64,000 nt of DNA, taken from IMG/VR virus record IMGVR_UViG_3300015607_004160, one strand, 5' to 3'. The translations under genes were made by a program, and so were the position numbers. This document shows positions 97-63,171 of this stretch, piece after piece. Each line of letters begins with the position of its first letter. The first letter of the stretch is position 1. Source of the stretch: a virus. Lineage: Duplodnaviria; Caudoviricetes. The notes below the pieces were generated by a model, which was not told where the DNA came from, did no database searches, and worked only from the letters and a program-made list of their open reading frames with translations.

Positions 97-1020
97 ATGA
101 AAATTAGAAATTTTTCTGAGTTTATTACAGAGGCATTAGGAATTGATAAGGACATCGAATCACAAGCACAAGAAATTTATAAGAAGATAAAGCATTCTAA
201 TAAAAATGAATTTAGTTTCATATTATATGAAACATCAGGAAATTACTTTTTTAAATTAATCATAGGTAAATTTGATAAAACTGCATCAGGTAGATTTATT
301 ATATCAGACGATAATAAGGAAATGACTGTTCTACTTAAAGATAGAAATGATTATTCCACATTACTTCATGAAATGAAGCATTTATCAAGGGCCATTAAAA
401 ATAAGGGTAGTCACTTTAATGATTTTATATACAAAACACATAAGTTAATTAGTAATATGGATCTTAAGGATAAGGATCCAATTAAGGCTCAAAAACAAAT
501 ATTTTATGTTTATGATAAAGATGAATTTGAAGCCAAATATCATGGGTATTATGTTGATCTTGATATTTATCTAAAGAAAATAGTCGATATAAAAAAACAA
601 TCACCTAATGACAAATCCGTATCAAAAGATTTCATTATAGATGTAATTAAAGGATTTTTAAATACCTGTGATGATATGACATACACTTGGTGGGTTGGAT
701 ATTTTAATGGGGAAAAAGTAAGTAAAGAGTTTAATTTTTCAAACTATTTAAAAGAAAGTGATATTAATCGTCTTTTTTATCTTATAACTAAAAAAGATTT
801 TAAACCAGGATATTCTTATACTGATATGTTTAAAGAGATATATTTTGACTTAAAAAACATTCTAAAAACTAAGATGAACATATATTCTAAAGAAGATAAA
901 GTGTTAATACAAAAATATAGAAAATCTTTTGAATTAGAAATAAATAAAAGAAAGAAGGTATTTTCTAAAAAGTTCTATCGTCTCTTCTCAATAATGGTTG
1001 ATAAATACGCAGATTCTTAA
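97..1020 (+). CDS. Putative zincin metallopeptidase-like protein with N-terminal CTS-like peptide
   Basis: HEMKH (HExxH) followed by DEFEA; starts MKIRNFSEFITE. Confidence 0.55.
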   Translation: MKIRNFSEFITEALGIDKDIESQAQEIYKKIKHSNKNEFSFILYETSGNYFFKLIIGKFDKTASGRFIISDDNKEMTVLLKDRNDYSTLLHEMKHLSRAIKNKGSHFNDFIYKTHKLISNMDLKDKDPIKAQKQIFYVYDKDEFEAKYHGYYVDLDIYLKKIVDIKKQSPNDKSVSKDFIIDVIKGFLNTCDDMTYTWWVGYFNGEKVSKEFNFSNYLKESDINRLFYLITKKDFKPGYSYTDMFKEIYFDLKNILKTKMNIYSKEDKVLIQKYRKSFELEINKRKKVFSKKFYRLFSIMVDKYADS

Positions 1021-1328
1021 GATAATATTTTTCCCAATTTAATATCTCTTAGTTGTGATAATAACAAATTTACTCTTGACATATCTATATCATCAAGTAT
1101 CTTCTTTTTGTTTTTAGAGATATATTCATAATCCAACACATAGTTTTCTTCATTGGTTTCAATGCATCCACTATCTAAAGTCAAGACAAATACTCTGATT
1201 AATTCATCAGTTCCTTCTTTATCAATCGTAGTATAATTTTTATTCCATCTATTTATAACCACAGTGTCATCATTCGGTATATAACTGACTTCTTTCCCTA
1301 TTAGTTCAGATAGTAAATTTAAACTCAT
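1017..1328 (-). CDS. Hypothetical protein with C-terminal RDxK-type motif
   Basis: 103 aa ORF ending RDIKLGKILS; TATATTTG just upstream. Confidence 0.7.
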   Translation of the reverse strand: MSLNLLSELIGKEVSYIPNDDTVVINRWNKNYTTIDKEGTDELIRVFVLTLDSGCIETNEENYVLDYEYISKNKKKILDDIDMSRVNLLLSQLRDIKLGKILS

Positions 1329-1332
1329 ATTA

Positions 1333-1340
1333 CAAATATA
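1333..1340 (-). promoter_or_regulatory. Bacteroidota-type -7 promoter element (TAnnTTTG)
   Basis: TATATTTG on the minus strand, 4 nt before the ATG at 1328; similar sites at 25568, 52531 and 53893. Confidence 0.55.
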
Positions 1341-1346
1341 AGAAAA

Positions 1347-2207
1347 TTAGTTGAATTTGATATTTAGCATACCATGTAATAATATGGGATTTGGATTCCT
1401 AACAGTATTTCTTATGATATTACCATCTTCATCTTCAATTTCACCATCATACCATTGACGGTAAGTATATGAATCGTGATAAGCAGATTCAACACTACAT
1501 GGATGTATATAACTAAATCTTCTTTTTATTCTATTTGATATTGAATCATCTACCCAATTTGCAGAAAACTGCTTTTGATTCCATCCATCCATTGTTAAGC
1601 AATATTCGGTATCATTTTCCCAATAAGTTGCATATTCTCTATGATAAATATCAATATTTACGAGAGGCTTCATTAATAAAAAATATTTAAAATAATTTGT
1701 AACATGAACTTTTCTGCTTCTTGGTTGTGATATCCAAAATTTGTTATTATTCTTTCTTTCCTCTCTTTGTTTATCCGCCAATCTATGTGACTCTTTGTTT
1801 ATTTTTTTAACAAATGATAGTAACGATGATAATAAATATTGTTGCTTATCATTAGCATTATCATAATTATCACCAAATAAAAAATTGGTATCAATATCTC
1901 CATGAACATATAAATAATAATGTTTCTTCGGTAAAAAGACTCCTATATTTATTTTATATGTATATTGGCTTGATTCAAAAAACTCAAGTAATATATCATC
2001 TATATAATCTTTTGAAAATCTATTATAGAAGCTATAAATTTCATCTACTTTACGATAAATTTGATCAACAATATCATGTATTCCTGTTAATTCACCAAGT
2101 TCCTTTTCGGTAGATCTGGAGATATAACCAGTATTCTCAATACGTTTACATATCTGATCAATCCTATTTTCAGAGTCAAACTCATTTAGTTCTAATAGAT
2201 ATCTCAT
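1347..2207 (-). CDS. Hypothetical protein, CTS-like N-terminus
   Basis: 286 aa, starts MRYLLELNEF; coupled to the upstream ORF by overlap. Confidence 0.7.
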   Translation of the reverse strand: MRYLLELNEFDSENRIDQICKRIENTGYISRSTEKELGELTGIHDIVDQIYRKVDEIYSFYNRFSKDYIDDILLEFFESSQYTYKINIGVFLPKKHYYLYVHGDIDTNFLFGDNYDNANDKQQYLLSSLLSFVKKINKESHRLADKQREERKNNNKFWISQPRSRKVHVTNYFKYFLLMKPLVNIDIYHREYATYWENDTEYCLTMDGWNQKQFSANWVDDSISNRIKRRFSYIHPCSVESAYHDSYTYRQWYDGEIEDEDGNIIRNTVRNPNPILLHGMLNIKFN

Positions 2208-2842
2208 TTTGAGTTTATAGCATTTTTTATTTGTATTTTACATCTTCTGATTATTTTTGAAACCTCCTCAGTCTCATTTTCAAAGTCCATATCATTAAGA
2301 CTCTCAATTTCTCTTAGTATATCTTCGTCTGACTTTGGGGTTTCCCCGGCATATCTACTAGTTTTTATTCTATTTTTCTCTACACCTGTTTCATTAACCC
2401 ATTCTAATATTTCAAATAATTTATTAGTTAAAAATTGAATTGTCTTTGTATCAATATCATTTATTTCGTTAATATTTTTATCATATATTTTCTTTTGATT
2501 ATCTAAAAATGAAACTAAAATTGCCTTATTTTCAGCTTGAAACATATAAAATTGTTTATAATCAGATACATCTTTATCTTCATATCCACCTCCTCTTTTT
2601 CGAATTCTTCTAGTCTTTCTGTTATAAAATACATAATTTTTATAATGAGCATACGTTCTTTCTATCCTATCTAGCATAATTCTAATTTCATTGAGATTTT
2701 TAGCACTATCACTATAATATACATTAATAAAAGCTAATATATCTTCATTGGGCTTATTCTTCTTCACCATATCTTTCAACGAATTCAACGCCTTTTGATA
2801 GTCCTCAATAGAATATGCTTCAAATATTTTTAAATATTTCAT
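2204..2842 (-). CDS. Hypothetical protein, CTS-like N-terminus
   Basis: 212 aa, starts MKYLKIFEAY. Confidence 0.75.
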   Translation of the reverse strand: MKYLKIFEAYSIEDYQKALNSLKDMVKKNKPNEDILAFINVYYSDSAKNLNEIRIMLDRIERTYAHYKNYVFYNRKTRRIRKRGGGYEDKDVSDYKQFYMFQAENKAILVSFLDNQKKIYDKNINEINDIDTKTIQFLTNKLFEILEWVNETGVEKNRIKTSRYAGETPKSDEDILREIESLNDMDFENETEEVSKIIRRCKIQIKNAINSK

Positions 2843-2873: not shown

Positions 2874-3686
2874 ATGGAAATAAAGAACTTTTTATCATTT
2901 ACTGAATCACTATACTCAATGGCGGCATCTATAGCACCTAGTAATTATAGCAAACCAGTTCGTAATGATGAATATATTGTTAAAGGAGTTGTAATAGAAT
3001 TTCCAGATACAACACAATTACTATTTGAAGTCGTCAGAGAAGATTACTTCTCAGATAAAATAAACTATACAATATCTACTCCGAGAAATGAAAATCCACT
3101 TTGGAGGGTAAGTAGAGACTATAAACTAACTCCACTAAATACGATACAGCAATTTTATATTGATGTATTCGGAGATTCGATACAGATGGAAAACTACCAA
3201 GAATTTGTATTTGTAAGATGCTGGAATACACCAGCTGATTTTGTAGAAAATAATTGGGAGGGATTTATTTTTAAATCCAATTCAGATAGTGGATTTTATG
3301 AAATAAGAATGAAATTTGTTATTATAAGTAATAGTTTAGATAGATCACAGTATCCTACATACACACCTGAATATTTTAGAAATTCATACTTAGATAAAAA
3401 TACAACAATGTGGGCAATAAGACACTTTCATCAAGAATTACCAAATGGAATAGCATATAGAGATTTAATGATATTAAAAAGAAAATTTGAGTCATATTTA
3501 ATAAATATAGATGAAACAAAATCAATAGTAAATCTTAGAGAAGCAAAAGTTGAAGGAATTAGTTTATTATCATTGATATATGCACTTAGTCTAAGAGATA
3601 ATAATATATTAAAAAATCTGAAATTAACTAGTAATAATATCAATCAGTGTCCTACTAATAAATTATTAGACACTTTATTTTTATAA
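2874..3686 (+). CDS. Hypothetical protein, CTS-like N-terminus
   Basis: 270 aa, starts MEIKNFLSFTES. Confidence 0.7.
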   Translation: MEIKNFLSFTESLYSMAASIAPSNYSKPVRNDEYIVKGVVIEFPDTTQLLFEVVREDYFSDKINYTISTPRNENPLWRVSRDYKLTPLNTIQQFYIDVFGDSIQMENYQEFVFVRCWNTPADFVENNWEGFIFKSNSDSGFYEIRMKFVIISNSLDRSQYPTYTPEYFRNSYLDKNTTMWAIRHFHQELPNGIAYRDLMILKRKFESYLINIDETKSIVNLREAKVEGISLLSLIYALSLRDNNILKNLKLTSNNINQCPTNKLLDTLFL

Positions 3687-15049: not shown

Positions 15050-15616
15050 TTATTTGGTTTTGATAAAATAATCTAACTTTTTTTTGTTATTAGCTAGACC
15101 ATCTTTCATTTGTTTTAATTTGTCCCTTGTATTTCTCTCCAATGTTACTATCTCATTCTTTAATTTGGTGATTCTTGATTTAATATCAGATATCTTCCCT
15201 TGAGTATATGCAACATCATTTTGTAGAGAGTCAGTTGCGTCTGGGTTTGTACCTATTGCACTTTGTCTTTGAGACAAAGTATCTGTTTGAGTACCTAATT
15301 CATTTTCAAGAGATCTTAGTTCTCTTGATTTTTCAGCAGATAAAGCATATAATCCAATAAGTGGATTAGTAAATTTTATTTTCTTTTTATCAAATGTATT
15401 TACAGGAATGAATTTTTGAGCAGCTAATTTTTTTATTAGATCTTTCTCATCTGTATACGTCTTATAAATATTATCAATAGTTGTCTTCTTGGATAAAAAT
15501 TCCTTAATATCAGATTCCGATTCATTAAAATAGCTCTTATCAGATGCTAATTCAGTTGGATCATTCTGGTAAACATTAAATTTTTCCCTTACAAAATCAC
15601 TATACTTCTTTATCAT
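15050..15616 (-). CDS. Coiled-coil protein, CTS-like N-terminus
   Basis: Starts MIKKYSDFVRE; heptad-rich C-terminal half. Confidence 0.7.
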   Translation of the reverse strand: MIKKYSDFVREKFNVYQNDPTELASDKSYFNESESDIKEFLSKKTTIDNIYKTYTDEKDLIKKLAAQKFIPVNTFDKKKIKFTNPLIGLYALSAEKSRELRSLENELGTQTDTLSQRQSAIGTNPDATDSLQNDVAYTQGKISDIKSRITKLKNEIVTLERNTRDKLKQMKDGLANNKKKLDYFIKTK

Positions 15617-18600
15617 TTCTTATTTTTAAATTCTGCTATTATTTTATTAACCTTACCATCTAAATCCACATCATTTCTAGTCATTGTAAATCTAGCATCA
15701 ACTAATTTGTTTCTTTGCTTTACATCACCACTTTTTTTATTCTTTTCTGGTGTTGGAACAATTAGGTAATAGATATCAGATATCTCCATGATATAATCTT
15801 TAATACCATTAAAATTATTATTCTTAATATCCTCAACACTTATTGATTTAAATGGAAATTTACCGCCAATTAGAAATCCTTTAGTAGATGCAAATCCAAT
15901 GCTGATCCTAACATCATTTGAATAAGGAATACCATTATTTCTCACATCTTCAATATAATCTGTTTTATAGACCTCTTTATTTTCCGTTTTAGCAGTTTGC
16001 TTTCTGACGTAATCACTAGCAATTGATTGTTTAGGATTATTCTTACTACTCACTTGATATCTGAATAAAACATATGGATCTTTATCACTTCCAGCAGTAA
16101 TAGGATAAATAGTATAAACATTATCGTCTTTAGATACAACCTTTATAATATTTCCTTTTTTGTTTTTTAATCCAGTAGTAAATTGCTCACTAAAAAAAGG
16201 CATGTCTACTGCACCCTCATCATCCTTCGAAATGATTGGATCAAAAGTAGGCGAATCTGGTAGGTTGCCTTGTTGAGCTGTTCCGCCACCACTTCCTTCA
16301 GTATTAAAATATTTTTTAAATATAATAGCTCTATGCTTCTTAAAAGTACCATTATCATTATTTAACAAGTCATTTATAAATGTAAGTAATGTTTTTCCTG
16401 ATCCAGGTGATTTCATTGGAGTGTTTGTGCTAGATTCAGCATCAGAAACAAACTTAGCATTAGCTAATATTCTTCTTAATTGTTTATCTTCTAATATCTT
16501 AGTTATTCCATCTTGCCATTTATTATATGGAAGTTTAGCCGCCCATGGTCCAAAACCAGGAGTACCTTCTGCACTCCACTTAGGTTCACCTTGGCCAATG
16601 TGTTCATATTCTCTCATTGTTTTTAATGATATCTTACCATTAGGACGACCTGATGGAATATAATCAGTTGCATATAATTTATATGCTCTTCCAAAAATGT
16701 TTACAATTTTAATAATATGATCATCATCAGGATTCGATAATTTTATATCAGTTCCTTCTTTCTTTTCAATATCATCTCTTAATTGTTGATCCTCTTTGGT
16801 TACTTTCCATTCTTTTTCTTCATCTTTTTTAAAGAATTTGAACCAAGACTTTTTAACACGATCACTATTATCACTCTCATCTGGAACTTCAGTATTTTGT
16901 GATTCTACTGGCTGTCCTGCTGGTTGTTCTTCATCAGGTTTAGGTTCATCAAGCTTAATATTATCAGGAGCTTCGTCAGCTTCCTCTTTTATTAATATGA
17001 AAGAAGAATAATCTCTAACAATTGATTCTTTTTTAATTGATGGGTACACCTCTTTTATTTTATTAAATGAATTGATGAATAACTTAATATGATTTCCTGC
17101 ACCACCAGCATCACCTTCTGATTTATATGAATTGCCATAAGAACCTAAAAGTCCCATATCTTCAGAAAATGCTAACAAAACTCTACCAAATAATGATATA
17201 GACTTAGCAATATCTGATACAGAGGTTCCCTCAGCTTCAGATATTAGCTCATCCATAGAAATTGGCTTACCAACATTTTGATAGTTTATTACAACTTGTC
17301 TACCAATTTCAAGTATTTTTTTCTTAGCTTCTTTTAATTTATCAGCACCATTTACATCAATTATTGATTCAATATATGGGACGAATTTTGCAATTCCTGA
17401 TTTATTATAGGCATTAACCACTTTATTCCATGCAGATCTAGCTTGTGATTCTTGGTCTCTAAGATTTGCATCTACTTCCTCATTAATAACAGATTCGGTA
17501 GCCATTGGTTGACCATGCATTCTTTTAGTTTCTTCTTTGGCTCTTTTATCAGCATCTACATCATAATCTGGTCTTGTTTCAGTTGAAACCTTTCCAGGTG
17601 TTTTAGTAGCTTCTTTTCCTTTAACTCTATCTAGCTTTGCTTGATATGTTTTAATCTCATTATTATAAAAATTAATTCTTTCCTTATTACCTTTAGCAGT
17701 ATATACAGAAAGTCCTTTTTTAGCTAGTTCTATTTTGGTATTAATTTCCTGTGATGTATTAGTTCTTTGTTGTTGATATTTCTTATCATCAAAAAAAGTA
17801 GATGTTTTACTATCACTAGTTTTTTTAAGCATAGATGGATCAACTGCAACAGTAGATGCGGTATATTTACCGTCTGATCCCATAACAGCTACTGAAACTA
17901 ATCCTTTTTTAATAGGTTCCTTTTTAACATCATCTTTAGTTAAATATTCTTTATCATCACCAATATTAATAACATTATTTAATGATATAACTTTAACTCT
18001 ATTAGTTTTTCCTTCTTTATTAGTATAGGAATATTCATTACCAACTTTTATTTCATCACTAACACCTTTTTCAAATTTAACTGTGTTATTCTTAATATCT
18101 CTATGTATTTTACAAATTGATTGTAATAATAATTTTGAATTGTTATAAAAAATAACTGCTGGATTAGATTTAGCATCATCCGCATTTTCTTCTCCCTCTC
18201 CTTCACCTTCACCATCTATTCCTAATCCTTTTTGAATTTCTAATAAATCATTTTTAAATTTCTTTAGTTTTTCAAGAAGAACCTCCTTGTTTTCTAAATT
18301 AGCTTTTTCTACTTGTGAAATAACATTATCTACTAATCCGATATTTGAAGCATCACCTAAAAGAACTTTTAATTTCTCTTTAACATCTTTCTCACTAGAA
18401 ACTTCTTTATAAATCTCTTCTAACAACATTCTATATGATAAGTTGTTTAGCTTTTTCTTTTCATCATCATTTAAAGAGTAGTCTTCTAATAAAGAATATA
18501 ATTCTTGGTTAAATAATTTGACTAAGTTATTTATTTTAGTATAGTTATATCCAATCTTCATCTTCCTTAATGTTGAATTGATAAGCCTTCCTAATAAAGA

Positions 18601-18711
18601 TCCACCCCATGTTATGTCGTTCTCAAATGCCTCGCTTATCATTGTAGATGATTCAAAGTCAGTTTTAAGATTCTCCATTCTATATTCTTGATGATATTTT
18701 AAATATTTCAT
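15613..18711 (-). CDS. Large putative virion/internal protein, CTS-like N-terminus
   Basis: 1032 aa, starts MKYLKYHQEY; TTAATATATA at 18738-18747 on the minus strand. Confidence 0.7.
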   Translation of the reverse strand: MKYLKYHQEYRMENLKTDFESSTMISEAFENDITWGGSLLGRLINSTLRKMKIGYNYTKINNLVKLFNQELYSLLEDYSLNDDEKKKLNNLSYRMLLEEIYKEVSSEKDVKEKLKVLLGDASNIGLVDNVISQVEKANLENKEVLLEKLKKFKNDLLEIQKGLGIDGEGEGEGEENADDAKSNPAVIFYNNSKLLLQSICKIHRDIKNNTVKFEKGVSDEIKVGNEYSYTNKEGKTNRVKVISLNNVINIGDDKEYLTKDDVKKEPIKKGLVSVAVMGSDGKYTASTVAVDPSMLKKTSDSKTSTFFDDKKYQQQRTNTSQEINTKIELAKKGLSVYTAKGNKERINFYNNEIKTYQAKLDRVKGKEATKTPGKVSTETRPDYDVDADKRAKEETKRMHGQPMATESVINEEVDANLRDQESQARSAWNKVVNAYNKSGIAKFVPYIESIIDVNGADKLKEAKKKILEIGRQVVINYQNVGKPISMDELISEAEGTSVSDIAKSISLFGRVLLAFSEDMGLLGSYGNSYKSEGDAGGAGNHIKLFINSFNKIKEVYPSIKKESIVRDYSSFILIKEEADEAPDNIKLDEPKPDEEQPAGQPVESQNTEVPDESDNSDRVKKSWFKFFKKDEEKEWKVTKEDQQLRDDIEKKEGTDIKLSNPDDDHIIKIVNIFGRAYKLYATDYIPSGRPNGKISLKTMREYEHIGQGEPKWSAEGTPGFGPWAAKLPYNKWQDGITKILEDKQLRRILANAKFVSDAESSTNTPMKSPGSGKTLLTFINDLLNNDNGTFKKHRAIIFKKYFNTEGSGGGTAQQGNLPDSPTFDPIISKDDEGAVDMPFFSEQFTTGLKNKKGNIIKVVSKDDNVYTIYPITAGSDKDPYVLFRYQVSSKNNPKQSIASDYVRKQTAKTENKEVYKTDYIEDVRNNGIPYSNDVRISIGFASTKGFLIGGKFPFKSISVEDIKNNNFNGIKDYIMEISDIYYLIVPTPEKNKKSGDVKQRNKLVDARFTMTRNDVDLDGKVNKIIAEFKNKK

Positions 18712-18809: not shown

Positions 18810-19262
18810 ATGAATATAAAAAATTACAAATCTTTTAACGAGAGCCTGTTGGGTGGACTATCATCTAAAGTTAGTAAAGCATTTAATAAACTTAAAGTGA
18901 TTGGAGGATTTGGTGATGGTAATATTGTTAAATTAAAAAAATGGGGAATCTCAACAAAGAAAGTATCTGAAACTTATTACCAAATAATACATGATAATAA
19001 AATTATTGCTGAAGTAAGAGTTACTGGGGAAGGATATAAACCTATATTTAAATTATCAATTTATTTCTATGATAGTGAAATAGAGAATACAAAAAACCTT
19101 GAGCTAAATAAAAAATTTGATGGTCAAAAAGAACAACCCTATGGAAAAGCAAGTAAAGATTTCTATACCACAGAATCCGCAATTGATTTTCTGATCTCTT
19201 TTTGGTCCACTAAAACTAACTCTGGTAAATCTAAGAATCCTCAATTTAAGATTAATTTATAA
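18810..19262 (+). CDS. Hypothetical protein, CTS-like N-terminus
   Basis: Starts MNIKNYKSFNES; TTAATATATA at 18780-18789. Confidence 0.7.
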   Translation: MNIKNYKSFNESLLGGLSSKVSKAFNKLKVIGGFGDGNIVKLKKWGISTKKVSETYYQIIHDNKIIAEVRVTGEGYKPIFKLSIYFYDSEIENTKNLELNKKFDGQKEQPYGKASKDFYTTESAIDFLISFWSTKTNSGKSKNPQFKINL

Positions 19263-27518: not shown

Positions 27519-27623
27519 ATGAGATATCTCAAAATTTTTGATTACAAAATAATTAGCCTTGGGTCAGAGTTATCTAGATCAGAAGTATTTGAATTTGTTT
27601 TTTTTATTGATCCCACAAAATAA
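27519..27623 (+). CDS. 34-aa CTS-like mini-ORF or gene remnant (not in ORF track)
   Basis: MRYLKIFDYKIISLGSELSRSEVFEFVFFIDPTK; TTAATATATA at 27505-27514. Confidence 0.4.
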   Translation: MRYLKIFDYKIISLGSELSRSEVFEFVFFIDPTK

Positions 27624-28711: not shown

Positions 28712-28847
28712 AATATTTAAAATTATTTGAAGCCAAATATTATAAGATTCATGTGAATCAACTACCAAGCTGTCTCCAAAGTTACACAGACCTGTCCAAT
28801 TTGAAGGTGTATTACAATTTTTAAAAGACTATGTGATTTTTAAATAG
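28708..28847 (+). pseudogene. Remnant of a CTS/CDQ-family gene
   Basis: MKYLKLFEAKYYKI (38-aa ORF, 28708-28824); another frame reads VQFEGVLQFLKD, like the CDQ-family C-terminus. Confidence 0.45.
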
Positions 28848-40875: not shown

Positions 40876-42624
40876 ATGGCTTCATACAACTCACTGAACC
40901 AGTTACAACAACCTACTAATATTGCTTCCTCAGTAGAAAATAAAGGTTTATTTAATAGGTTACTAAGAAATCTTAGTTCATTTGGTATGAAATATGATGA
41001 CATGATCATCCGAAATACGGTGGGGGTTGGTATGAATGAGGATCCATACTCACAGAAAGGAAACTCAATGTATGACTTTTTTAGTCAAAAGGCAGTAGCT
41101 CAAGTTTTAAATAAAAAATCGATTCCGTATTTAGATAGGGCATATTCAGATAAAAGAAGGATTTTAAGGGAGTATTCAATTAAAGATGAAATAAGAGATT
41201 TTATATCAACTGTTGCTGATGAATCAATTGTTTATAATGATGATAGAGACTTTTGCTTTTTAAAGCCATTATCTAATGATTATTCACAAGATGTTAAAGA
41301 TAAATATACTGAATATTTTGAAAAAATTTATAACAAATTTGGATTCTCTGATGGTATAACATCTTGGAATATGATGAAAGATTTTCTAATTGATGGATAT
41401 GTTGCATTAGAAATTGTATGGGATGATAAGAAAAAGAATATTATTCATTTTAATAGAATGAGGCCAGAAACGCTAGTTCCTGCTTATGAGCCATCTATTG
41501 GTAATCTTTGGATTCAATATCCAGAAGACCCACAATTAAGAAGAATATTTTTAGATTCACAAATTGTATTTATATCATATTCTACACAACATGATTATTC
41601 TGAAACATCTTATGTTGAAGGATTAATCAAACCATACAATCAATTAAAGATAATTGAACAAACTAGAATTATGTTCAACGTTATTAATGCCACAGTTTAT
41701 CAAAAATTTACTATACCGATTAAAGGTTTACCTAGACAAAGAGCTGAAGAGCAAGTTGGACAATTAATATCTGATTACTCTGAAGAAGTAGAATGGGATG
41801 ACTCATTAGGAACATTGACTATAAATGGTACAAAACATCTTCCTTATAATAAACAAATATGGTTTCCTGAAGGTGAAGCTGGTACACCAAATATGGAGTT
41901 AGTATCACCAGAAGGTCATAATTTGAATGAGAGTGATATGCTAACTTGGTTTTATAACGCATTAAAAAGAGCCTCTAAAATACCATTCTCAAGATTTGAA
42001 AAAGAAAATGGTGGTGGTAATATCTTTTCAGACGCATCTGAGATGACTAGAGATGAGGTTAAATTTTCAAACTTTATTAATAGAATTAGATCCAATTTTA
42101 AAGAGCTTATTGTTAAATCACTTAGGCTTCAAATGTGTATGGAATTTCCTGAATTAAAAGATGATGAGATATTCCTAAATCAAATTGATATTTCATTTAA
42201 CTCAAATCAAATATTTGAAGAATGGAAAAAATTAGCTAATATGGAAAAAAGATCATCTATACTATCAAGTCTTTTAGGAATTCAAACTGCAGAAGGTCAG
42301 CCTTATTTCCATATCGAATATTTAATTGATAAGGTTATGAAATTAACACCAGAAGAAAAAGAAGAAAATAAAGCCTACTGGATTAAATCTAAAGGAGCTG
42401 GAAGTGCCCAAGGCGGTGAAGGCGGTGGAGAATTTGGTGGCGGTGAAGGAGGTGGAGAATTTGGTGGCGATGAAGGAGGAGAATTTGGTGGAGAGGGCGG
42501 TGGTGAATTTGGTGGACCTCAAGGCGGCGAATTTGGTGGGGAAGGCGGTGGTGAAACTCCTCCAGCACAAGGTGGCGGTGAAACTCCTCCTCCAGCACAA
42601 GGTGGTGGTGAGTTTGAATTCTAA
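40876..42624 (+). CDS. Portal protein (T4 gp20-like)
   Basis: FLIDG, SYVE..IKPYNQLKIIE, GLPRQRAEE, WFP, ASKIPFSRF, TRDEVKFSNFINRIR. Confidence 0.93.
   Translation: MASYNSLNQLQQPTNIASSVENKGLFNRLLRNLSSFGMKYDDMIIRNTVGVGMNEDPYSQKGNSMYDFFSQKAVAQVLNKKSIPYLDRAYSDKRRILREYSIKDEIRDFISTVADESIVYNDDRDFCFLKPLSNDYSQDVKDKYTEYFEKIYNKFGFSDGITSWNMMKDFLIDGYVALEIVWDDKKKNIIHFNRMRPETLVPAYEPSIGNLWIQYPEDPQLRRIFLDSQIVFISYSTQHDYSETSYVEGLIKPYNQLKIIEQTRIMFNVINATVYQKFTIPIKGLPRQRAEEQVGQLISDYSEEVEWDDSLGTLTINGTKHLPYNKQIWFPEGEAGTPNMELVSPEGHNLNESDMLTWFYNALKRASKIPFSRFEKENGGGNIFSDASEMTRDEVKFSNFINRIRSNFKELIVKSLRLQMCMEFPELKDDEIFLNQIDISFNSNQIFEEWKKLANMEKRSSILSSLLGIQTAEGQPYFHIEYLIDKVMKLTPEEKEENKAYWIKSKGAGSAQGGEGGGEFGGGEGGGEFGGDEGGEFGGEGGGEFGGPQGGEFGGEGGGETPPAQGGGETPPPAQGGGEFEF
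42412..42621 (+). repeat. Coding Gly/Glu repeat (GGEF/GGEG) in portal C-terminal tail
   Basis: Locally GC-rich GGTGGAGAATTT-like units. Confidence 0.8.
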
Positions 42625-43254: not shown

Positions 43255-45435
43255 ATGAAACCAGTATTAATTGTTGAAAACAATACAACCCCACTTAGTA
43301 TGAATGAAAACGCTGAAGGCGCTAGTAAGAAAGACTATGTGTTAGGTGGTATATTTACTGAGTTTGGTGTTAAAAACAGAAATGAAAGAATTTACACTGC
43401 AGACAAATTTATTCCATGTTTAGATGAATTAAACGAAAGAATAAATACTATGGGTGTAGTTTATGGTGAATTCGATCATCCTGATGTATTTGATACTTCA
43501 TTATCAAGATCTTCTCACCTTATTCAAAAAGCATTTTATGTTAAGGAGAGCAATAGGGTTGATGGTCAAATTAGATTATTAAATACTTATTGGGGTAAAG
43601 AAGCAAAAGCATTAGTAGATGATGGTTGTCCAATGTTCGTTTCATCAAGAGCTGCTGGTATTACAGAAGCTAATGGAACAGTTACATTGAAGAAGTTATT
43701 CACTTACGACATTGTAGCTGACCCAGGTTTTGCTTCTGCTAGATTGACATCAGTAAATGAGTCATTTGGTTACACAGACAACGCTAACTTTAGGATATAT
43801 GAAATGTCCGACGAGTCAAAAATTAACGAACTATTCAACATGAACAAAAATGAATTCGTTACCAAAGATCAATTGACAGATTATTCTAAGTATATAATCA
43901 ATGAGATTGCATCTACTAAAAAGGAAGTTAAATCTGCCTTAAAAACTGGTAACTTAAATCCGAAAAAATTAGAGCAACTTTTAGAGTACTACGAAGAGTT
44001 AAACAAAACTAACGAGCAAGTTGTTAAGTATTTAGATTACTTAGCAGAAAAAGTTCAAGTTGTAGTTAATGAAAACAAATCATTAAAATCAACTACTGAA
44101 AAATTAGTAAGTCACAATGACTACTTAGCTGAAAATTTAGAAAAAGCTATTAATTATTCTGAATACTTAGCTGAAAGCTTAGATAAGAACATTACTTACT
44201 CTGAATACTTAGCTGAAAATATCGACAAAAACATTACTTATTCTGAATATTTAGCTGAAAATATCGACAAAAACATTACTTATTCTGAATATTTAGCTGA
44301 GAATCTTGATAAGAATATTGCTTATTCTGAATATATCGCTGAAAACTTGGATAAGAACATTGCATACTCTGAGTATATCGCTGAAAATCTTGATAAGAAT
44401 ATTTCTTATTCTGAATATTTAGCTGAACACTTAGATAACTCAATTGCTTATTCTGAATATTTAGCAGAGCATGTAGAAGGAAATATCGCATATTCCGAAT
44501 ACATTGCAGAACATTTAGATGATAACATTGCTTATTCTGAATATATCGCTGAAAACTTAGACAAAACTGTAACTTATGCAGGCATGATTTCTGAGAAATT
44601 AAACGGTGGTAAAGTATTCGAAAATAGTGGTGAATCATTCCCAACACTTAACGAAGCAGGATTTGAATTGCTTCCTGAAGAAGAAGAAGAAGACGAATAT
44701 GATGAAGAATTTCCTTTGGATGATGAATATACTTCCGAAGTAGGATTACCTGGTGAAGAAGAATTTGTTGAAGAAGAAGGATTACCTAGTTCTGAATTAC
44801 CTGGTGAAGAAGTTTTACCTGGTCAATTAGATAATCAGGAAGATTGTGATGAATGTGGTAATGAAGAAGTTGGTGAAGAAGAAAGAGTATTTGGTGAAAA
44901 TACTGAATATAATGGAGAATCAGATAGCGACCTATCTTTACAAATAGACAAACTAATCGAAGAAGCTAAAAAACGTAAAGTTTCTGAGTCAAACGATTTA
45001 AATTTCTTAAAATTCTTAAACAAGTCTCAAGTTGATAGTTATTATGAACTTTCTAACGATGAGCAAGAACAAGTTAAACTTTACATAAACGAAAAGAGTT
45101 ATTACTCAAGTTCTGATGTTTTAAAATTAATCTCTGAAGCACTTTCAGTTAAGAATGAATCAATTGAAGAAAAATTAGTCAGATTGATGCCTGAAAACAT
45201 TAAGCCAATCTGGAGTCAGCTAAATGAAGCATCTAGAAAATCTATCTTATCTCAAGCTAGATTATACCCAGAATTAAATACTGAATCAAAAGTAGAACAT
45301 TTCTGGTTAACTAGAAATCTCAAGAAAAATGAATCTGTAACTAAGAAGTTAGTCGCTCACGAAAGCCTAATACAAGAAGATAGACTTTCAGACAGTGAAG
45401 TTAACGCAATTATGGAAAGATTCAGAAGCATTTAA
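43255..45435 (+). CDS. Prohead protease (gp21-like) fused to a scaffold/core-like domain
   Basis: KNRNERIY, YGEFDHP, VSSRAAG, TYDIVADPGF; then coiled coil, 14-aa repeats and an acidic region; precedes the capsid gene. Confidence 0.9.
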   Translation: MKPVLIVENNTTPLSMNENAEGASKKDYVLGGIFTEFGVKNRNERIYTADKFIPCLDELNERINTMGVVYGEFDHPDVFDTSLSRSSHLIQKAFYVKESNRVDGQIRLLNTYWGKEAKALVDDGCPMFVSSRAAGITEANGTVTLKKLFTYDIVADPGFASARLTSVNESFGYTDNANFRIYEMSDESKINELFNMNKNEFVTKDQLTDYSKYIINEIASTKKEVKSALKTGNLNPKKLEQLLEYYEELNKTNEQVVKYLDYLAEKVQVVVNENKSLKSTTEKLVSHNDYLAENLEKAINYSEYLAESLDKNITYSEYLAENIDKNITYSEYLAENIDKNITYSEYLAENLDKNIAYSEYIAENLDKNIAYSEYIAENLDKNISYSEYLAEHLDNSIAYSEYLAEHVEGNIAYSEYIAEHLDDNIAYSEYIAENLDKTVTYAGMISEKLNGGKVFENSGESFPTLNEAGFELLPEEEEEDEYDEEFPLDDEYTSEVGLPGEEEFVEEEGLPSSELPGEEVLPGQLDNQEDCDECGNEEVGEEERVFGENTEYNGESDSDLSLQIDKLIEEAKKRKVSESNDLNFLKFLNKSQVDSYYELSNDEQEQVKLYINEKSYYSSSDVLKLISEALSVKNESIEEKLVRLMPENIKPIWSQLNEASRKSILSQARLYPELNTESKVEHFWLTRNLKKNESVTKKLVAHESLIQEDRLSDSEVNAIMERFRSI
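44113..44574 (+). repeat. 42-bp coding tandem repeat (YSEY[LI]AEx[LIV]DxN[IV]x), 10 units plus 1 degenerate unit
   Basis: Units run 44155-44574 with a degenerate unit at 44113-44154. Confidence 0.9.
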
Positions 45436-45498: not shown

Positions 45499-47184
45499 AT
45501 GTCACACATTAGAATAGACAAACAAAAAGCTTTCAAGAAATGGGCTCCTGTATTGGAGAACATGGGTGTTGTTAGCGAAGAAAAATTAGACTGGTTATCA
45601 GAATATGCTGAGTACCACTCTATCAATGAAAATGCATACCTTAACGCAGGTATCGCAGGTATGGGTTCAATAACCGCTCCTCAGCCTTCAACTTGGGCAG
45701 GTAGTACTATCGGTACTAACTGGTCTAGCCATGGTGGTCAAGTCGGTTCTGGTGATTTAGGTCAAAACCTTTTACCAGTAGCTATGAAAATTGCAGCTCA
45801 AACAATTGGTCTTGACCTTGTTGCTGTAAAACCTACTCCTGGTCCAAAAATCGACTTACTTTACATCGACTTCCAGTATGATGATAGTAATCTTGATAAC
45901 AATGAAAGACCTCAGGTTTTCAAAGTTAACGTTACTAGCACTAGTGAAGCTGCTGCTGTTGTTGCAGGTTTAACTGCTGCTTTAGTAAGTGCTTCAATCA
46001 CTCAAACTCAGGGTGGTTTAGCTGGTGGTAGATTATTCCAGAACATCAACACTGGTTCAACATCAACAACTGACCCAGCAACTAGTGGTGTTTCTAAACA
46101 ATATTGGACAGAATTCTTAGGATTCTCTCGTATTGATGGTTACCCAATGTTTAAGGCTTACAGACAAGCTAACGCTTTCGGTGCTGTAACTCCTAGCAGT
46201 GTAACTGGTCCTGCTCCTTGGGCATTTGACCAAACTAAAAACACTTTCAACCCAACTGCCTCTATGGTGGCTCAAATCACTTTACTTGGTGGTACTGCAG
46301 TTTCTGCATGTACAGTTGAATTAGTGTCTGCTCTTGAAGATCACATTCCTGGATTCGTATCTAACTGGACTAACGGTGGTACTTATCCAATGTCTCGTCA
46401 AGATGATGATAACAGCTACGCTGGTGTTATCGGACCTAAAGTTTCTTCTAAATCTATCGCAGTTGGTACTATTGAAGTATCTTCAGCTCTTAGAAGAAGT
46501 GAAATTGAAGATATCAAAGCTAACACTGGTATGGACATCGTTCAAAAGATGGAGTCTATCCTTGTTAATGAGTTATCTCAAACAATTTCTAAGCAAATCA
46601 TTGCTAAAATCTTCGAATTAGGTGCATTAAACAGAACATCTGCTCCTACGAGAGGTGGTAGTCCTTTATTTGACTTAGACACATCTTATGTTGGTACTTC
46701 TGGCCCAGGTGGTGAAACTACACACGCTGTACAAAGAAAACTTATCACTAAGTTAGTACACGCTTCTAACTTCATCGCAACTGAAGGTCGTGTTGGTCCT
46801 GCACAATTTGCAGTTACTAACGGAGGTCTTGCAGCAGCTTTCATGGATGTAGCTGGTTACACAATTAACCCTGCTAAATCTAAGATCAATGGTTCAGGTC
46901 AATTATACCCTGTAGGTCAAATCGGTGATATCACTGTTTATGTTGATCCTTACATGAAGTATAACGACAACAGAATCGTTCTTGGTAGAAAGAACAACCC
47001 TGATCAACCTGGTGTTATCTTTGTTCCATACTTAATGGCACAATCTATCAGCATCATTTCTGAAGCTACATTCGCTCCTAGAATGTTATTACGTTCAAGA
47101 TATGCAGTAGCTGAAGTTGGTTGGTTCCCACAAAAACAGTATATGCAACTTAACGTTACAGACGCTGGTGGATTCCTTAACTAA
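45499..47184 (+). CDS. Major capsid protein (T4 gp23-like)
   Basis: KKWAPVLE, IGLDLVAVKP, LVNELSQTISKQI, VYVDPY, GVIFVPY, TFAPRMLLRSRYA; strongly biased codon use. Confidence 0.95.
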   Translation: MSHIRIDKQKAFKKWAPVLENMGVVSEEKLDWLSEYAEYHSINENAYLNAGIAGMGSITAPQPSTWAGSTIGTNWSSHGGQVGSGDLGQNLLPVAMKIAAQTIGLDLVAVKPTPGPKIDLLYIDFQYDDSNLDNNERPQVFKVNVTSTSEAAAVVAGLTAALVSASITQTQGGLAGGRLFQNINTGSTSTTDPATSGVSKQYWTEFLGFSRIDGYPMFKAYRQANAFGAVTPSSVTGPAPWAFDQTKNTFNPTASMVAQITLLGGTAVSACTVELVSALEDHIPGFVSNWTNGGTYPMSRQDDDNSYAGVIGPKVSSKSIAVGTIEVSSALRRSEIEDIKANTGMDIVQKMESILVNELSQTISKQIIAKIFELGALNRTSAPTRGGSPLFDLDTSYVGTSGPGGETTHAVQRKLITKLVHASNFIATEGRVGPAQFAVTNGGLAAAFMDVAGYTINPAKSKINGSGQLYPVGQIGDITVYVDPYMKYNDNRIVLGRKNNPDQPGVIFVPYLMAQSISIISEATFAPRMLLRSRYAVAEVGWFPQKQYMQLNVTDAGGFLN

Positions 47185-59501: not shown

Positions 59502-59837
59502 ATGAATAAAATCAAAAAGTACGACGAATTATCCTCAGATATTGAGAATAAAGACTTAGATCCAGAAATACAAAAACTTAAAGGTGAGTATCAAATCGAA
59601 GAAATCTTAGATATATTTACCGACCCGAAAGATATACCTGTTACTGAAGGTGCTATTGGCATAAATACGGATTTATCAGTCAAAGAGGTTAAAAGAGGTG
59701 ATTATATTTGGATAACAGCTTTACTTAGAAAGCAAGGGCATAGCTTTACATCACCTGCCGTACAAGGTGTTATTAAATTAAGAGTTGTTGATATATTCTA
59801 TGGATTGCAATACCTAAATAAAGTTATAAATAAATGA
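59502..59837 (+). CDS. Hypothetical protein, CTS-like N-terminus
   Basis: MNKIKKYDEL; TTAATATATA at 59488-59497. Confidence 0.65.
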   Translation: MNKIKKYDELSSDIENKDLDPEIQKLKGEYQIEEILDIFTDPKDIPVTEGAIGINTDLSVKEVKRGDYIWITALLRKQGHSFTSPAVQGVIKLRVVDIFYGLQYLNKVINK

Positions 59838-60865
59838 AATATTTAAAAATATTTGAAAAATTTAATACATTTTATTATAAGCTAACGCAGAATGAGTTTG
59901 ATGAAATGATACAGAGTCCTGATATATACACATTTACTCAACGTGATATGTCAGTAATATCTGATTTTGCAAAAAGAAAAAAATATATCTATCAAACTAA
60001 TAGTGTTGATATAATAAAGTTTGACTCCAGAGAATGGTCATTATCTGATGATTGGGACTTAGATAAGTGGATATCATCATCCGAAATTAGAATACACGAA
60101 GAAAACAATATTACAACATATAAAGCTAATCAAGATATTTCTAAGGGAACTCATTACTGTGGGACAATAGGACAAAAGGAAGAATATCTTAAAGTAGAAA
60201 ACTTCACAATTAGACTTAAAAAGTATATGATTAAATATCCAAATAGTAGATTTGGGGGATCGTTACCACTACCACAAAAGCATATGCTAAACATAGATAT
60301 AATGAAATGTAGTGATGAGTGGTTTTTAGTTGTATTTGACAATAATATTATGTATAAATGTGATCAATTAGATGGGCTAATAGAATTCATGTCGAATATA
60401 AATACATTGGAAGCATTTAGAGATGAATACCATTCTCTATATGATATAGAAAAAAATAGAGAGGAATATTGGAATGGATATCTTAAGAAATTAAAAGCTG
60501 ATCAGGATGAACTACAAAAAGAGATGGAAGAGGATCCACACTATTTTACAATGATTAGCCAGGATGAGGTAGATGAACTTTATGATAACTTGGTCAGCTT
60601 CAAAGATGATGAGATTGAAAAAATAAAAGAATTATTTAGCGATAAATATTTAGTATATAAAAAGACATGGAAAAAATATGACTCTGATAATACCGAAATC
60701 TTTATAGAGGCAATTAGACCAAATTGCATAATTAGAATTTGGAAATTAGAAGATGAATGGTATATAGTTTCAACAAGTGATGCAAACGATAGAGGAAGAG
60801 TGAATGATAAATGTGATCAATTTGATGGACTAAAGAGATTATTAAATAAAATATTAATAAAATGA
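59834..60865 (+). CDS. CTS-bearing protein with two DEW..CDQ domains
   Basis: MKYLKIFEKF; DEWFLV..YKCDQLDGL and DEWYIV..KCDQFDGL. Confidence 0.7.
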   Translation: MKYLKIFEKFNTFYYKLTQNEFDEMIQSPDIYTFTQRDMSVISDFAKRKKYIYQTNSVDIIKFDSREWSLSDDWDLDKWISSSEIRIHEENNITTYKANQDISKGTHYCGTIGQKEEYLKVENFTIRLKKYMIKYPNSRFGGSLPLPQKHMLNIDIMKCSDEWFLVVFDNNIMYKCDQLDGLIEFMSNINTLEAFRDEYHSLYDIEKNREEYWNGYLKKLKADQDELQKEMEEDPHYFTMISQDEVDELYDNLVSFKDDEIEKIKELFSDKYLVYKKTWKKYDSDNTEIFIEAIRPNCIIRIWKLEDEWYIVSTSDANDRGRVNDKCDQFDGLKRLLNKILIK

Positions 60866-62760
60866 TACGTATTAAATTATTTGAAGAATTAAATAAAAGT
60901 AAGCCTAAGGTAATTATTTTTCAAGGATCGCCAAGGGATAAAGATACTTGTCCAAATATGGACAGTAAAACACATACAATAGTTGAATACATCATTGAAA
61001 AATATTCTGATGTATATGATTTTGATATAATTGATTTATCAGTAAACCAGTCTAAAAAGTCAATCATACAACCATGTAAAGGATGTGTATCAACTGCTGG
61101 GGGATATCATTGTATTGCAAAAGGTGAAAGAGTAGAAACAAAGTATGGATTTAAGAAAATTGAAGATATTCAAATTGGAGATGAACTATCTACTGGAGTA
61201 GTTGAAAATGCTTGGATGTCAGGAAAAGACTCTGATGTATTTGAAGTGATAGTTTCGGATGGTAGAAAAATAAAACTTACCGACAATCACCCAATAAAAA
61301 TAATAAATCCAATATATAAAAATGGTAATAAGAGAAAATTAATTGGATATGAAGAAAAGTGGAAAAATGTAAAAGATATCAAAATTGGTGATAGACTTCC
61401 ATTTAATTTTAATGAAAATTTTATTAACGATGATAATAACATTAATGTTTATCATATTGCTGGTATGATATGGGGAGATGGATCATATAAGAGTGGAAAA
61501 TTAAGATTGTGTTATGATATAAGAGATGAAAAACTTTTTAATTTTATATCATCTAATTTTGAAATTTCAGTTTCACAAGGTCCAATATCAAAAAATACTA
61601 CTACCAACTGGATATCTTTTAAAGATAGAAATATAAACATCTCGCTAAACACTTTAATTAAATCAGAAAAGATTAAAAATATTCACAGTAGAAGAATACC
61701 AGATATAATAATGAATTCTTCTAAAATACAAATATCTAAATTTTTAAATGGATGGTTTGCTACTGATGGATCTGTTATATTAAGAAATAATAATGGAAAT
61801 AAATATTATGAGATAAATTTAACAAGTGTTAGTAAAGATTCTCTAAGAGATTGTCAAATGTTATTATCAAAGTTTGGAATAAAATCATCAATATCATATC
61901 TAGATCATATAGAAACTTTTAGATTTAATAAATTTATTAAAAGGTCTTCTATGTTGATTATAAGCGGTAAAAATGCCAATATATTCATGCGAGAAATCGG
62001 TATAATTAACAAAGACTACAAATTTGAATATATTAAATATAGAAATTCTAAAAAGCATACATCCTTCGGAAAAATTGAAAGCATAGAAAGCATTGAAACA
62101 TCGGATGTCTATGATATATCTGTTAGTGATTCTCACAAATTTATATGTGAAGGTATTGAGGTACATAATTGTCATTGGTACTGCACATGTTATAAAAAGA
62201 ATGATGAAAAAAAGCCAGACTTTATGTATGACGGAGACATATATACCAAGCTTGAAAAGTGTGATGCTTTTTTAGTATTTAGTCCAATACATTGGTACTC
62301 TGTTAGTAGTCAAGTAAAAGCTTTATTTGATAGATTAGTTTGTGCTAGTCAAACATTACACTATGATGACGCTATTAAAGTATTGGGAAAAGGAAATTTG
62401 AAAAATTCAGAAATAACCGGTAAATTTGCACAATCCGGTGAATATAACGATTTGTTAAAGAATCACTTAGAGGGTAAAGTAGCAGGATTTTATGTACATG
62501 GTGATGATGGAGCAAACGATTATGATGATAAAGAATTGCCAGAATCATTTAAAGACGAAAAATTCACACCTAAGCAAGCAATAACGCCGATAGTAAATCA
62601 ATGTAGATACTCTGGTATAAACGTCCCTAATGACCTTATAGAGGCATTCTATATAAATAAAGATAAGGATTATTATACAGCAAATTTAGATTTAGAAAAT
62701 CTATCAAAACCATTTGATAATGCTGATAGATTATTAAAAAATTTAAAGAAATACATATGA
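60862..62760 (+). CDS. Flavodoxin-fold (iron-sulfur flavoprotein/FMN reductase-like) protein with intein, CTS-like N-terminus
   Basis: FQGSPR, PCKGC..CHW.C.C, SPIHWYSVSSQVKALFDRL, GKVAG. Confidence 0.85.
   Translation: MIRIKLFEELNKSKPKVIIFQGSPRDKDTCPNMDSKTHTIVEYIIEKYSDVYDFDIIDLSVNQSKKSIIQPCKGCVSTAGGYHCIAKGERVETKYGFKKIEDIQIGDELSTGVVENAWMSGKDSDVFEVIVSDGRKIKLTDNHPIKIINPIYKNGNKRKLIGYEEKWKNVKDIKIGDRLPFNFNENFINDDNNINVYHIAGMIWGDGSYKSGKLRLCYDIRDEKLFNFISSNFEISVSQGPISKNTTTNWISFKDRNINISLNTLIKSEKIKNIHSRRIPDIIMNSSKIQISKFLNGWFATDGSVILRNNNGNKYYEINLTSVSKDSLRDCQMLLSKFGIKSSISYLDHIETFRFNKFIKRSSMLIISGKNANIFMREIGIINKDYKFEYIKYRNSKKHTSFGKIESIESIETSDVYDISVSDSHKFICEGIEVHNCHWYCTCYKKNDEKKPDFMYDGDIYTKLEKCDAFLVFSPIHWYSVSSQVKALFDRLVCASQTLHYDDAIKVLGKGNLKNSEITGKFAQSGEYNDLLKNHLEGKVAGFYVHGDDGANDYDDKELPESFKDEKFTPKQAITPIVNQCRYSGINVPNDLIEAFYINKDKDYYTANLDLENLSKPFDNADRLLKNLKKYI
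61111..62169 (+). mobile_element. Intein with LAGLIDADG homing endonuclease (353 aa)
   Basis: Starts CIAKGERV, block B LTDNHP, IAGMIWGDGS and FLNGWFATDGS, ends VYDISV..VHN followed by Cys. Confidence 0.92.
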
Positions 62761-62784
62761 AATATTTAAAAAGAATACAAGATA

Positions 62785-63171
62785 ATGAAATATTTAAAAA
62801 CATTTGAATCAAAAAAATCAGGTCCTAATTTCAAAAAAATTATAATTGATGATTTTGTTATATATCAAGGAAAAGATGCTGAGGCAAATGATTATGTTAC
62901 ATTAGAAGTAGCAAATGATAATGATATGTGGTTTCATGCAAAAGGTGTTCCCGGTAGTCACGTCGTAATGAAAATAAAAGACAAACTACCAACACAAGAG
63001 ACAATTAAAAAGGTGGCTTTAATAGCTGCTAAGAATTGTAAATCAAAAGATAATAGTATTAAAGTACTTTATTGTAAGAAAAAATTCGTTAAAAAAGAAA
63101 AAGGAATGAATCCCGGACAAGTTAAAGTAGATTATAATAACGCTGATGAAATAATCATTGAAAAAAAATAA
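62785..63171 (+). CDS. Stand-alone NFACT-R RNA-binding domain protein (RqcH C-terminal-like), CTS-like N-terminus
   Basis: GKDAEANDYVT, DMWFHAKGVPGSHVV, VKK..GMNPGQV; starts MKYLKTFES. Confidence 0.85.
   Translation: MKYLKTFESKKSGPNFKKIIIDDFVIYQGKDAEANDYVTLEVANDNDMWFHAKGVPGSHVVMKIKDKLPTQETIKKVALIAAKNCKSKDNSIKVLYCKKKFVKKEKGMNPGQVKVDYNNADEIIIEKK

Follow-up and report, generated by a model that had tools for sequence, protein, structure and literature searches.

An N-terminal leader peptide of 8-14 residues was found on about one quarter of the genes in a 64,000-nt stretch of DNA from an uncultivated huge phage (Duplodnaviria; Caudoviricetes; IMG/VR record IMGVR_UViG_3300015607_004160; the whole stretch is called the window below), and it also begins 7-16% of the genes in related phages of 460-735 kb. 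The leader can be described as amphipathic, M-(K-H/Y)-[LI]-K-x-[YF]-x-x-[F]-..-E, with hydrophobic positions i, i+3 and i+6 and with a small residue behind a Glu, and it appears to be placed before unrelated, mostly orphan accessory proteins that would be expressed late. The explanation we favour, at slightly less than an even chance, is that the leader would be a capsid targeting sequence (CTS) of the phage T4 type used on a very large scale, and this explanation accounts for more of the facts than any other. A first-pass annotation had already proposed such an address for capsid cargo; it is now partly supported by a prohead protease and head genes, the resemblance of the leader to the T4 CTS and to repeats of the scaffold, the modularity of the leader, a hydrophobic-x-Glu ending in 81% of cases and a shared promoter box, while the loading of dozens of proteins is what we infer from the whole. 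The scale, the fused protease-scaffold with CTS-like repeats and the spread through a widespread clade of the largest phages are new; the CTS concept itself is known from T4.

The 25 starts listed by the first-pass annotation were all present where it had placed them. A 12-residue profile trained solely on the related phage LR756502 was used to define class-1 leaders (at least 8 bits; MK[YH][LI]Kx[FY]..E), which were found at 13 of the 81 N-termini in the window and at none of its 325 internal Met sites (Fisher p = 3e-10). These 13 starts are 2842(-), 18711(-), 26832, 27649, 28094, 31505(-), 35534(-), 35553, 37437(-), 38021(-), 39687, 59834 and 62785. Eight further starts (97, 2874, 15616(-), 18810, 33725, 34729, 59502 and 60862) have a short form, M-x-[IV]-[KR]-[KN]-[FYW]-x-[ED]-F-x-x-E, the start at 2207(-) is a doubtful or weak member, and three more belong to stubs of 16-38 codons. 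The strict expression ^MK[YH][LI][KRN]x(1-2)F[END] matched 11 of the 2,471 ATGs in the six frames of the window; each of the 11 opened an open reading frame (ORF) and none was internal to a gene, nine of them beginning genes of 128-343 aa and the other two a 38-aa stub and a 144-aa gene.

Genome-scale tests were made on the complete LR756502 (642,428 bp) and on the initial 400 kb from three further relatives, LR756501 (735 kb), LR756504 (636 kb) and LR756500 (462 kb), all of them, like the phage of the window, uncultivated. The window has a G+C content of 25-34%, and its tail sheath gene is about 73% identical at the DNA level to those of LR745206 and LR756502, uncultured phages of 634-642 kb, whose clade is named 'Mahaphage' with Bacteroidetes as predicted hosts (PMC7162821). 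In LR756502, 8 bits were reached by 131 of 959 ORFs and by 4 of 3,779 internal Met sites, and the tagged total is 131-152 of the 959 genes, depending on the pattern used. With a looser pattern that admits both forms, the leader was present at 21% of N-termini in the window, 16% in LR756502, 9% in LR756501, 8% in LR756504 and 7% in LR756500, against 1.3-1.9% of internal Met sites in all sources. The form varies by phage: MKYLKxFE prevails in the window, MKHLKKYNES or MKHLKTYKIFES in LR756502, MIKK[FY]xxF(E/INE) in the 735-kb phage and MKYI[KL]EYEEF[IL]xE in the 462-kb phage. The class-1 pattern was absent from Lak-A1. The clade is widespread, with more than 3,300 metagenomic homologues of the protease-scaffold protein (the matches being to its scaffold part), and at least 118 stretches of contigs in IMG/VR contain one exact leader variant.

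The leader is conserved and selected as a peptide and not as DNA. Inside it, L, I, K5, F, E and S are encoded by synonymous codons in genome-wide proportions (Leu4 in the window, for example, is TTA, CTA, CTT or TTG), the sole codon bias being an over-use of AAA at codon 2 (84% versus 61%). The AT-rich context of start codons does not yield the motif, because the leader codons show this genome-wide mix, and it is excluded as the source of the leader by the internal-Met and codon controls; the doubt recorded at first, that the motif might occur at the level of AT-rich chance, is thereby removed (0 of 325 internal Met sites, mixed codons).

Tagged genes are enriched five-fold for the box TAATATATA. 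The first-pass annotation had placed many of them directly behind a TTAATATATA motif, and 14 of 22 tagged window genes indeed carry TAATATATA within 60 nt upstream, 11 of them at 4-8 nt before the ATG. Within this distance the box was found for 64% of tagged versus 25% of untagged genes in the window, and for 42% versus 12% in LR756502 (p = 2e-14). It also stands 20-27 nt upstream of the portal, protease, capsid and sheath genes, which fits a co-expression of tagged genes with head genes, presumably at late times. As a side observation, some divergent gene pairs are separated by very short AT-palindromic intergenic regions (35535-35552, 2843-2873, 18712-18809, 33679-33724 and 59451-59501) with one TAATATATA box per strand, 4-8 nt before each ATG; since the box ends so close to the ATG, near-leaderless or leaderless late-type mRNAs would result.

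Such an arrangement raises the question whether the first codons are kept for efficient initiation or early elongation behind TAATATATA, the peptide itself having no role. This was judged quite improbable. The spacing of 4-8 nt between box and ATG in 48 of the 131 tagged LR756502 genes would suit it, but 45 untagged genes share the short spacing, and 76 of the 131 tagged genes have no exact box, many of them being operon-internal with overlapping stop and start codons (e.g. 59834). The AAA bias at codon 2 would favour it, as would the predicted Bacteroidetes hosts. Translation starts in Bacteroidetes depend little on Shine-Dalgarno pairing. Yet synonymous use in codons 3-12 is as mixed as elsewhere in the genome, with the amino acids kept out to residue 10-12, and it would be left unexplained why the leader resembles the T4 CTS and the scaffold repeats.

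The leader is a modular add-on at domain boundaries. In eleven phage proteins of the DUF7919 family, MK[HY][LI]K[LT]F(..IN)E adjoins the start of the domain (SYYxDL...), and two distant homologues on short contigs begin at the domain itself without a leader; in an AlphaFold2 model of the tagged DUF7919 protein, residues 1-23 were unstructured (predicted local distance difference test below 50). A homologue in LR756502 was found for 6 of 23 tagged window genes versus 41 of 58 untagged ones (p = 4e-4), and five of these six homologues keep the leader, with body identities of 29-76%. Tagged genes thus turn over fast, as at the loci of the T4 internal proteins.

Among 20 tagged window proteins, Pfam gave only two significant matches, DUF7919 and an FMN-reductase-like protein split by a LAGLIDADG intein, whereas the 57 untagged proteins gave 30 families, including thymidylate synthase, clamp loader, ClpS, Fpg, gp15, terminase, portal, capsid and homing endonucleases. 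The statement that core genes lack the tag therefore holds for the genes that can be named, namely thymidylate synthase, clamp loader, terminase, portal, capsid, sheath, gp15 and homing endonucleases, all of which are untagged. In the relatives the tagged bodies include lysozyme, T4-type RNA ligase 1, SET, GNAT, HNH, NUDIX, GATase, methyltransferase, C39 peptidase, thioesterase, PQ-loop membrane proteins and an ART-PolyVal ADP-ribosyltransferase. The bodies had been called mostly unrelated, and 95 of 146 are singletons by BLAST; a profile search groups 44 of the 146 (including 27649 and 39687) into one virus-only paralogous family with a DILLELxDDGF-like motif lying 25-40 residues in, so the word applies to about 70% of bodies and fails for about 30%. 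For this DDGF family the protein-atlas look-up led to virus-only unnamed clusters, and its fold matches nothing named.

The duplications behind this family bring up another origin, in which a cassette of promoter and first codons was spread by duplication and recombination while the bodies diverged or were swapped, leaving a leader with little or no present function. LR756502 contains long tandem arrays of tagged genes at 10-82 kb and 418-426 kb, with many stop/start overlaps and many DDGF members, and the stubs and an out-of-frame relic leader indicate that leader DNA duplicates and decays. The tagged folds, however, include ones of no possible common ancestry (flavodoxin-like, lysozyme, RNA ligase, SET, GNAT, NUDIX and ADP-ribosyltransferase). 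The peptide consensus is kept although codons vary and the protease-scaffold proteins are only 35-52% identical, and the leader is retained in five of six orthologue pairs as given above. A mere legacy is thus weakened, because a functionless peptide would not remain so conserved, and we regard it as very improbable.

The T4-type capsid address is suggested by the head genes of the window, among other features. A gp20-type portal (40876..42624, +; Pfam Portal_T4, E = 2e-60), a gp21-type prohead protease-scaffold (43255..45435, +; PHROG 207, E = 4.6e-30) and a gp23-type major capsid protein (45499..47184, +; Pfam Gp23, E = 2e-27) follow one another, and a T4-type tail sheath (11213-14986, -) and large terminase (22343-24499) are also present. 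The Pfam S77 match of the protease, 22.5 bits, lies just below the cut-off of 27, and a sequence search of solved structures with the protease-scaffold profile gave no match. In T4 the protease and the scaffold are encoded separately, whereas here they form one polypeptide in four parts, a protease domain (aa 1 to about 190), a helix of about 250 residues, an acidic disordered stretch and a helical C-domain. Ten tandem 14-aa repeats, NI(A/T)YSEY(L/I)AEN(L/I)DK, each with [LI]-A-E, were found in the scaffold helix (44146..44565, +). The same architecture with repeats occurs in LR756501, LR756502 and LR756504, is degenerate in LR756500 and is absent from Lak-A1; across the phages compared these proteins are 35-52% identical. 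The portal has a low-complexity C-terminal tail rich in Gly and Glu (aa about 508-582; 42400-42621, +) with GGEGGGEF-like repeats.

The T4 CTS, MKTYQEFIAE, is removed from internal proteins and is sufficient for packaging foreign proteins (PMC8442874; PMC5694885). The repeat core YSEYIAE is nearly identical to its YQEFIAE, and the propeptide region of the capsid protein holds WLSEYAEY (aa 32-39). When the T4 core, a query taken from the literature, was scanned with BLOSUM62 against the 2,696 proteins of the window and the four relatives, 64 of the 136 matches with a score of at least 20 (47%) fell in residues 1-10 (baseline 4.7%), as did all six with a score of at least 26, while the reversed heptad gave 5 of 104. 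Gap-free alignment to KTYQEFIAEA was obtained for MKYIKEYEEFLLEA (462-kb phage), MVKRYKQFINEG (735-kb phage) and MKIRNFSEFITEA (window start 97). The heptad [FYW]x[ED][FY][ILVFM]x[ED] occurred at 17 N-termini versus 1-2.5 expected, and of its 44 occurrences inside proteins, half belong to the scaffold repeats of two phages. As a positive control, a DNA pattern for [FY]x[ED][FY]IxE in T4 recovered the N-termini of ipII, ipIII and gp61.1 and one internal site in gp61. The uncharacterised 54-aa gp61.1 (T4 gene 61.1; L101:667-831, -) begins MKTFKEFIKE, a near-copy of the IPII/IPIII CTS at the same offset. The ending of the leader would also suit a gp21-type cut: within residues 5-16, [LIVMFY]-x-E was found in 81% of leaders versus 26% of N-termini without the tag. 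Glu first appears at position 8, 9 or 11, most often with Ser behind it (40%).

Under the capsid-address explanation, the leader would mimic one unit of the scaffold repeat (YSEY[IL]AE), and through this mimicry we propose that it docks the protein on the prohead core formed by the protease-scaffold fusion, while the gp23-type shell is still open. A cut behind the Glu by the gp21-type protease would then set the cargo free inside the head, from where it could enter the host along with the DNA. The protease-scaffold fusion is thus the candidate reader and processor of the leader, and docking, cleavage, packaging and injection, by one route for all tagged proteins, would be the course of events deduced. 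The fullest version of this, in which about one gene in seven, on the order of at least 100 proteins, would be loaded by one scaffold-mimicking T4-like leader and injected with the DNA, is on the unlikely side in our estimate.

Several points weigh against a capsid address. The scale would be unprecedented (131-152 of 959 genes in LR756502), and packaging is deduced from the sequences of phages of which every clade member examined is uncultivated. The strict [LI]-x-E is present in just 47% of leaders (and in 16% of untagged N-termini), and the common MKHLKKFES and MKHLKKYNES have K or Y at P3. One shuffle of the T4 core was unenriched, but another, which keeps the Y-E-[I]-Y-E pattern, was enriched at N-termini, and the likeness to T4 is partly compositional since this shuffle has the same composition. 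A matrix made from the scaffold repeats alone gave four matches of at least 8 bits, none N-terminal, so the leaders were not retrieved; BLOSUM scans took its place, since repeats this uniform do not make a useful matrix. The phages compared showed no co-variation between leader and scaffold repeat: LR756501 has the same repeats with a shorter, differently built leader, and LR756500 has degenerate repeats with the most T4-like leader. The small, highly basic, DNA-associated body of the T4 internal proteins is not matched by the acidic tagged bodies (median isoelectric point 5.1 versus 5.8 for untagged ones; 63% of tagged below 5.5), some tagged proteins have transmembrane segments, a PQ-loop domain or a lipoprotein-like segment, and one is an ordinary-looking endolysin. 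A predicted complex between two copies of the scaffold-repeat region (aa 255-450) and the N-terminal 60 residues of the protein at window start 97 had an ipSAE of 0.00, which, with an alignment of 29 rows and without control runs, is evidence neither way.

Part of these facts would also fit if the leader were a handle for some phage factor other than the prohead core, such as a chaperone, an assembly or replication compartment, a membrane-targeting system or timed proteolysis, so that the cargo would be sorted in the cell and left unpackaged. Conservation at the peptide level and modularity are expected of such a handle too, and the very large number of tagged genes, the acidic and sometimes membrane-bound bodies unlike those of T4 internal proteins, and the tagging of an endolysin and an RNA ligase, whose T4 counterparts act in the cytoplasm, would be more at ease with it. 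No candidate reader is known for it, whereas the heptad of the leader recurs in the scaffold repeats and the capsid propeptide; the likeness to the T4 CTS would have to be coincidence, and the Glu-small ending suits a gp21-type site in most leaders. Such a handle is therefore considered unlikely, and the probability left after the four explanations belongs to one that is as yet unknown.

Two other functions were considered and rejected. A Sec or lipoprotein signal peptide does not agree with an amphipathic leader that is followed by charged residues and has no hydrophobic core of 10-20 residues. Transmembrane-like segments of any kind were found in 4 of 131 tagged LR756502 proteins (3% versus 8.7% of untagged ones), always after the leader; the low share of membrane proteins is also in keeping with a capsid address. 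In four LR756502 genes the leader is immediately followed by a Gly/Ala-rich hydrophobic segment (580926-581384, 56658-57272, 95990-96634 and 544849-545472), and one of these proteins combines the leader with a membrane anchor that has a lipobox-like LLATAC. An N-degron read by ClpS was likewise set aside, as Met-Lys would probably not be trimmed to a bulky residue. A homologue of ClpS, the N-degron adaptor, is encoded in the window at 24501-24782 (-; Pfam E = 7e-17).

For the class-1 genes of the window, the leader MKYLKIFEAY opens a 212-aa orphan (2204..2842, -) with a profile score of 14.9, and MKYLKYHQEY opens a 1032-aa orphan upstream of the sheath gene (15613..18711, -), for which the protein-atlas look-up gave nothing usable and whose LR756502 orthologue begins MRYLKQREEF. 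Orthologues with a leader were also found in LR756502 for the 208-aa protein at 26832..27458 (+; MKHIRKFESY, there MKHIRQFESY) and the 205-aa protein at 28094..28711 (+; MIYIKTYEE, there MKYIKTYEN). The virus-only DDGF family is represented by a 144-aa protein (27649..28083, +; MKYLNLFNNF) and a 141-aa protein (39687..40112, +; MKYLKKFNES), the portal lying two genes downstream of the latter. An acidic linker stands behind the leader MKYLKLFENY of a 148-aa protein (31059..31505, -). The 162-aa protein at 35046..35534 (-; MKHLKKFEGF) is divergent to the 147-aa protein at 35553..35996 (+), in which MKHLKLFE precedes the DUF7919 domain, and the 18-bp AT palindrome between them holds both promoter boxes. 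The remaining members are a 146-aa protein (36997..37437, -; MNHIQLFEEY), a 188-aa protein whose leader MKYLKRVFEN has a one-residue insertion (37455..38021, -), a 343-aa protein that is operon-internal without a promoter box in front (59834..60865, +; MKYLKIFEKF), and a 128-aa protein (62785..63171, +) in which the 13-aa leader MKYLKTFESKKSG is joined to a domain corresponding to the C-terminal half of an untagged 229-aa LR756502 protein.

The short form is best seen in the 307-aa protein at 97..1020 (+), whose leader MKIRNFSEFITE|A is the closest in the window to the T4 YQEFIAE and the scaffold repeat YSEYIAE. It is also present in a 188-aa protein located between the 1032-aa tagged gene and the sheath gene (15050..15616, -; MIKKYSDFVRE), a 150-aa protein (18810..19262, +; MNIKNYKSFNES), a 62-aa protein (33725..33913, +; MIDNFKLFEN) and a 107-aa protein (34729..35052, +; MKIKLFKEYITE), and in weaker form in a 270-aa protein (2874..3686, +; MEIKNFLSFTES) and a 111-aa protein (59502..59837, +; MNKIKKYDEL, 7.3 bits). 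MIRIKLFEEL, a form common in the 735-kb phage, begins the intein-interrupted FMN-reductase/flavodoxin-like protein of 632 aa (60862..62760, +), for which a sequence search against solved structures gave no match; its intein was recognised by Pfam Intein_splicing and LAGLIDADG_3, the protein that hosts it being itself leader-bearing. The doubtful member is a 286-aa protein (1347..2207, -; MRYLLELNEF, 5.6 bits).

Three stubs complete the set: a promoter box with an MRYLKIFD leader in a 34-aa ORF (27519..27623, +), an MKYLKLFEA leader in a 38-aa ORF (28708..28824, +), and a 16-aa relic leader, MKYLKRI (62757..62807, +), lying 28 nt upstream of and out of frame with the leader at 62785. The second adjoins the homing-endonuclease gene at 29136-30620 (-), and it looks as if the insertion of this endonuclease had cut a tagged gene. 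A paralogue of the endonuclease is encoded at 5328-6902 (+), both having DUF7487 and MTES_1575 (PHROG 3339), and a GIY-YIG endonuclease is encoded at 47285-48046 (+).

Huge phages (more than 450 kb) consist mostly of orphan genes of unknown role. If the leader is a capsid address, a plain rule of sequence would place the products of 7-16% of their genes in the interior of the virion and their action at the very start of infection, access would be gained to a very large set of possible counter-defence and host-takeover proteins, and the head-assembly plan of T4 would have been scaled up, with the repeats of the protease-scaffold doubling as docking motif. If the fullest version were true, the virion-borne effector arsenal would be about ten times more diverse than in any studied phage, and the injected proteome of thousands of uncultivated phages could be read from sequence. 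Use of the leader as a portable tag for packaging is also conceivable. With a role other than capsid address, it would still be an undescribed, strongly selected sorting or expression signal of a widespread phage clade. In a full-text literature search, no paper was found with MKYLK/MKHLK-type leaders in phages, and none connecting huge phages to capsid targeting.

Among known systems, the CTS of T4 IPII and IPIII is the nearest. It is also N-terminal and about 10 residues long, with the same spacing of K, aromatic, aromatic, [IL] and Glu and a hydrophobic-x-Glu end, it is borne by unrelated, fast-evolving proteins that look non-essential, and gp20/gp21/gp23-type head genes are present in both cases. 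N-terminal propeptides are removed by the gp21 prohead protease from IPI, Alt and gp24 as well; Alt, an ADP-ribosyltransferase, is packaged via its propeptide (PMC5694885), and an ADP-ribosyltransferase is also among the tagged proteins here. Unlike the 130-150 such proteins per genome found here, T4 has a handful (ipII, ipIII and gp61.1 by motif search), and most leaders here have an extra MK[HY] prefix, with the Glu often one or two residues earlier. T4 IPI-III are highly basic (PMC8442874), whereas the tagged bodies are acidic, the CTS-like repeats here are on a fused protease-scaffold, and packaging and cleavage are predicted.

The phiKZ-like phages (SPN3US, with gp47 and gp53/54; phiKZ; 201phi2-1) are similar in having many internal head proteins, about 50 different proteins being reported for the SPN3US head. 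Their propeptides are thought to target the prohead, and their gp21-related protease cleaves after x-x-Glu; the ejection protein gp47 of SPN3US has a transmembrane helix directly behind its propeptide (PMC5694885), a precedent for the membrane segments that follow some leaders here. They differ in that the propeptides are mostly 80-160 residues long, with no single shared short peptide, in that their proof is mass-spectrometric, and in that their capsid and portal sequences are not T4-type.

Outside phages, the cargo-loading peptides of encapsulins are comparable, as a short portable peptide sends unrelated enzymes into an HK97-fold shell; they are, however, usually C-terminal, bind the shell protein directly, stay uncleaved and serve few cargo types per system. 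Finally, candidate tags of other huge-phage clades (MNWYK..., MNRYDIALGKKP..., RVAxRY...) resemble the leader as short peptides on dozens of unrelated orphans, while their sequences and the clades that carry them differ.

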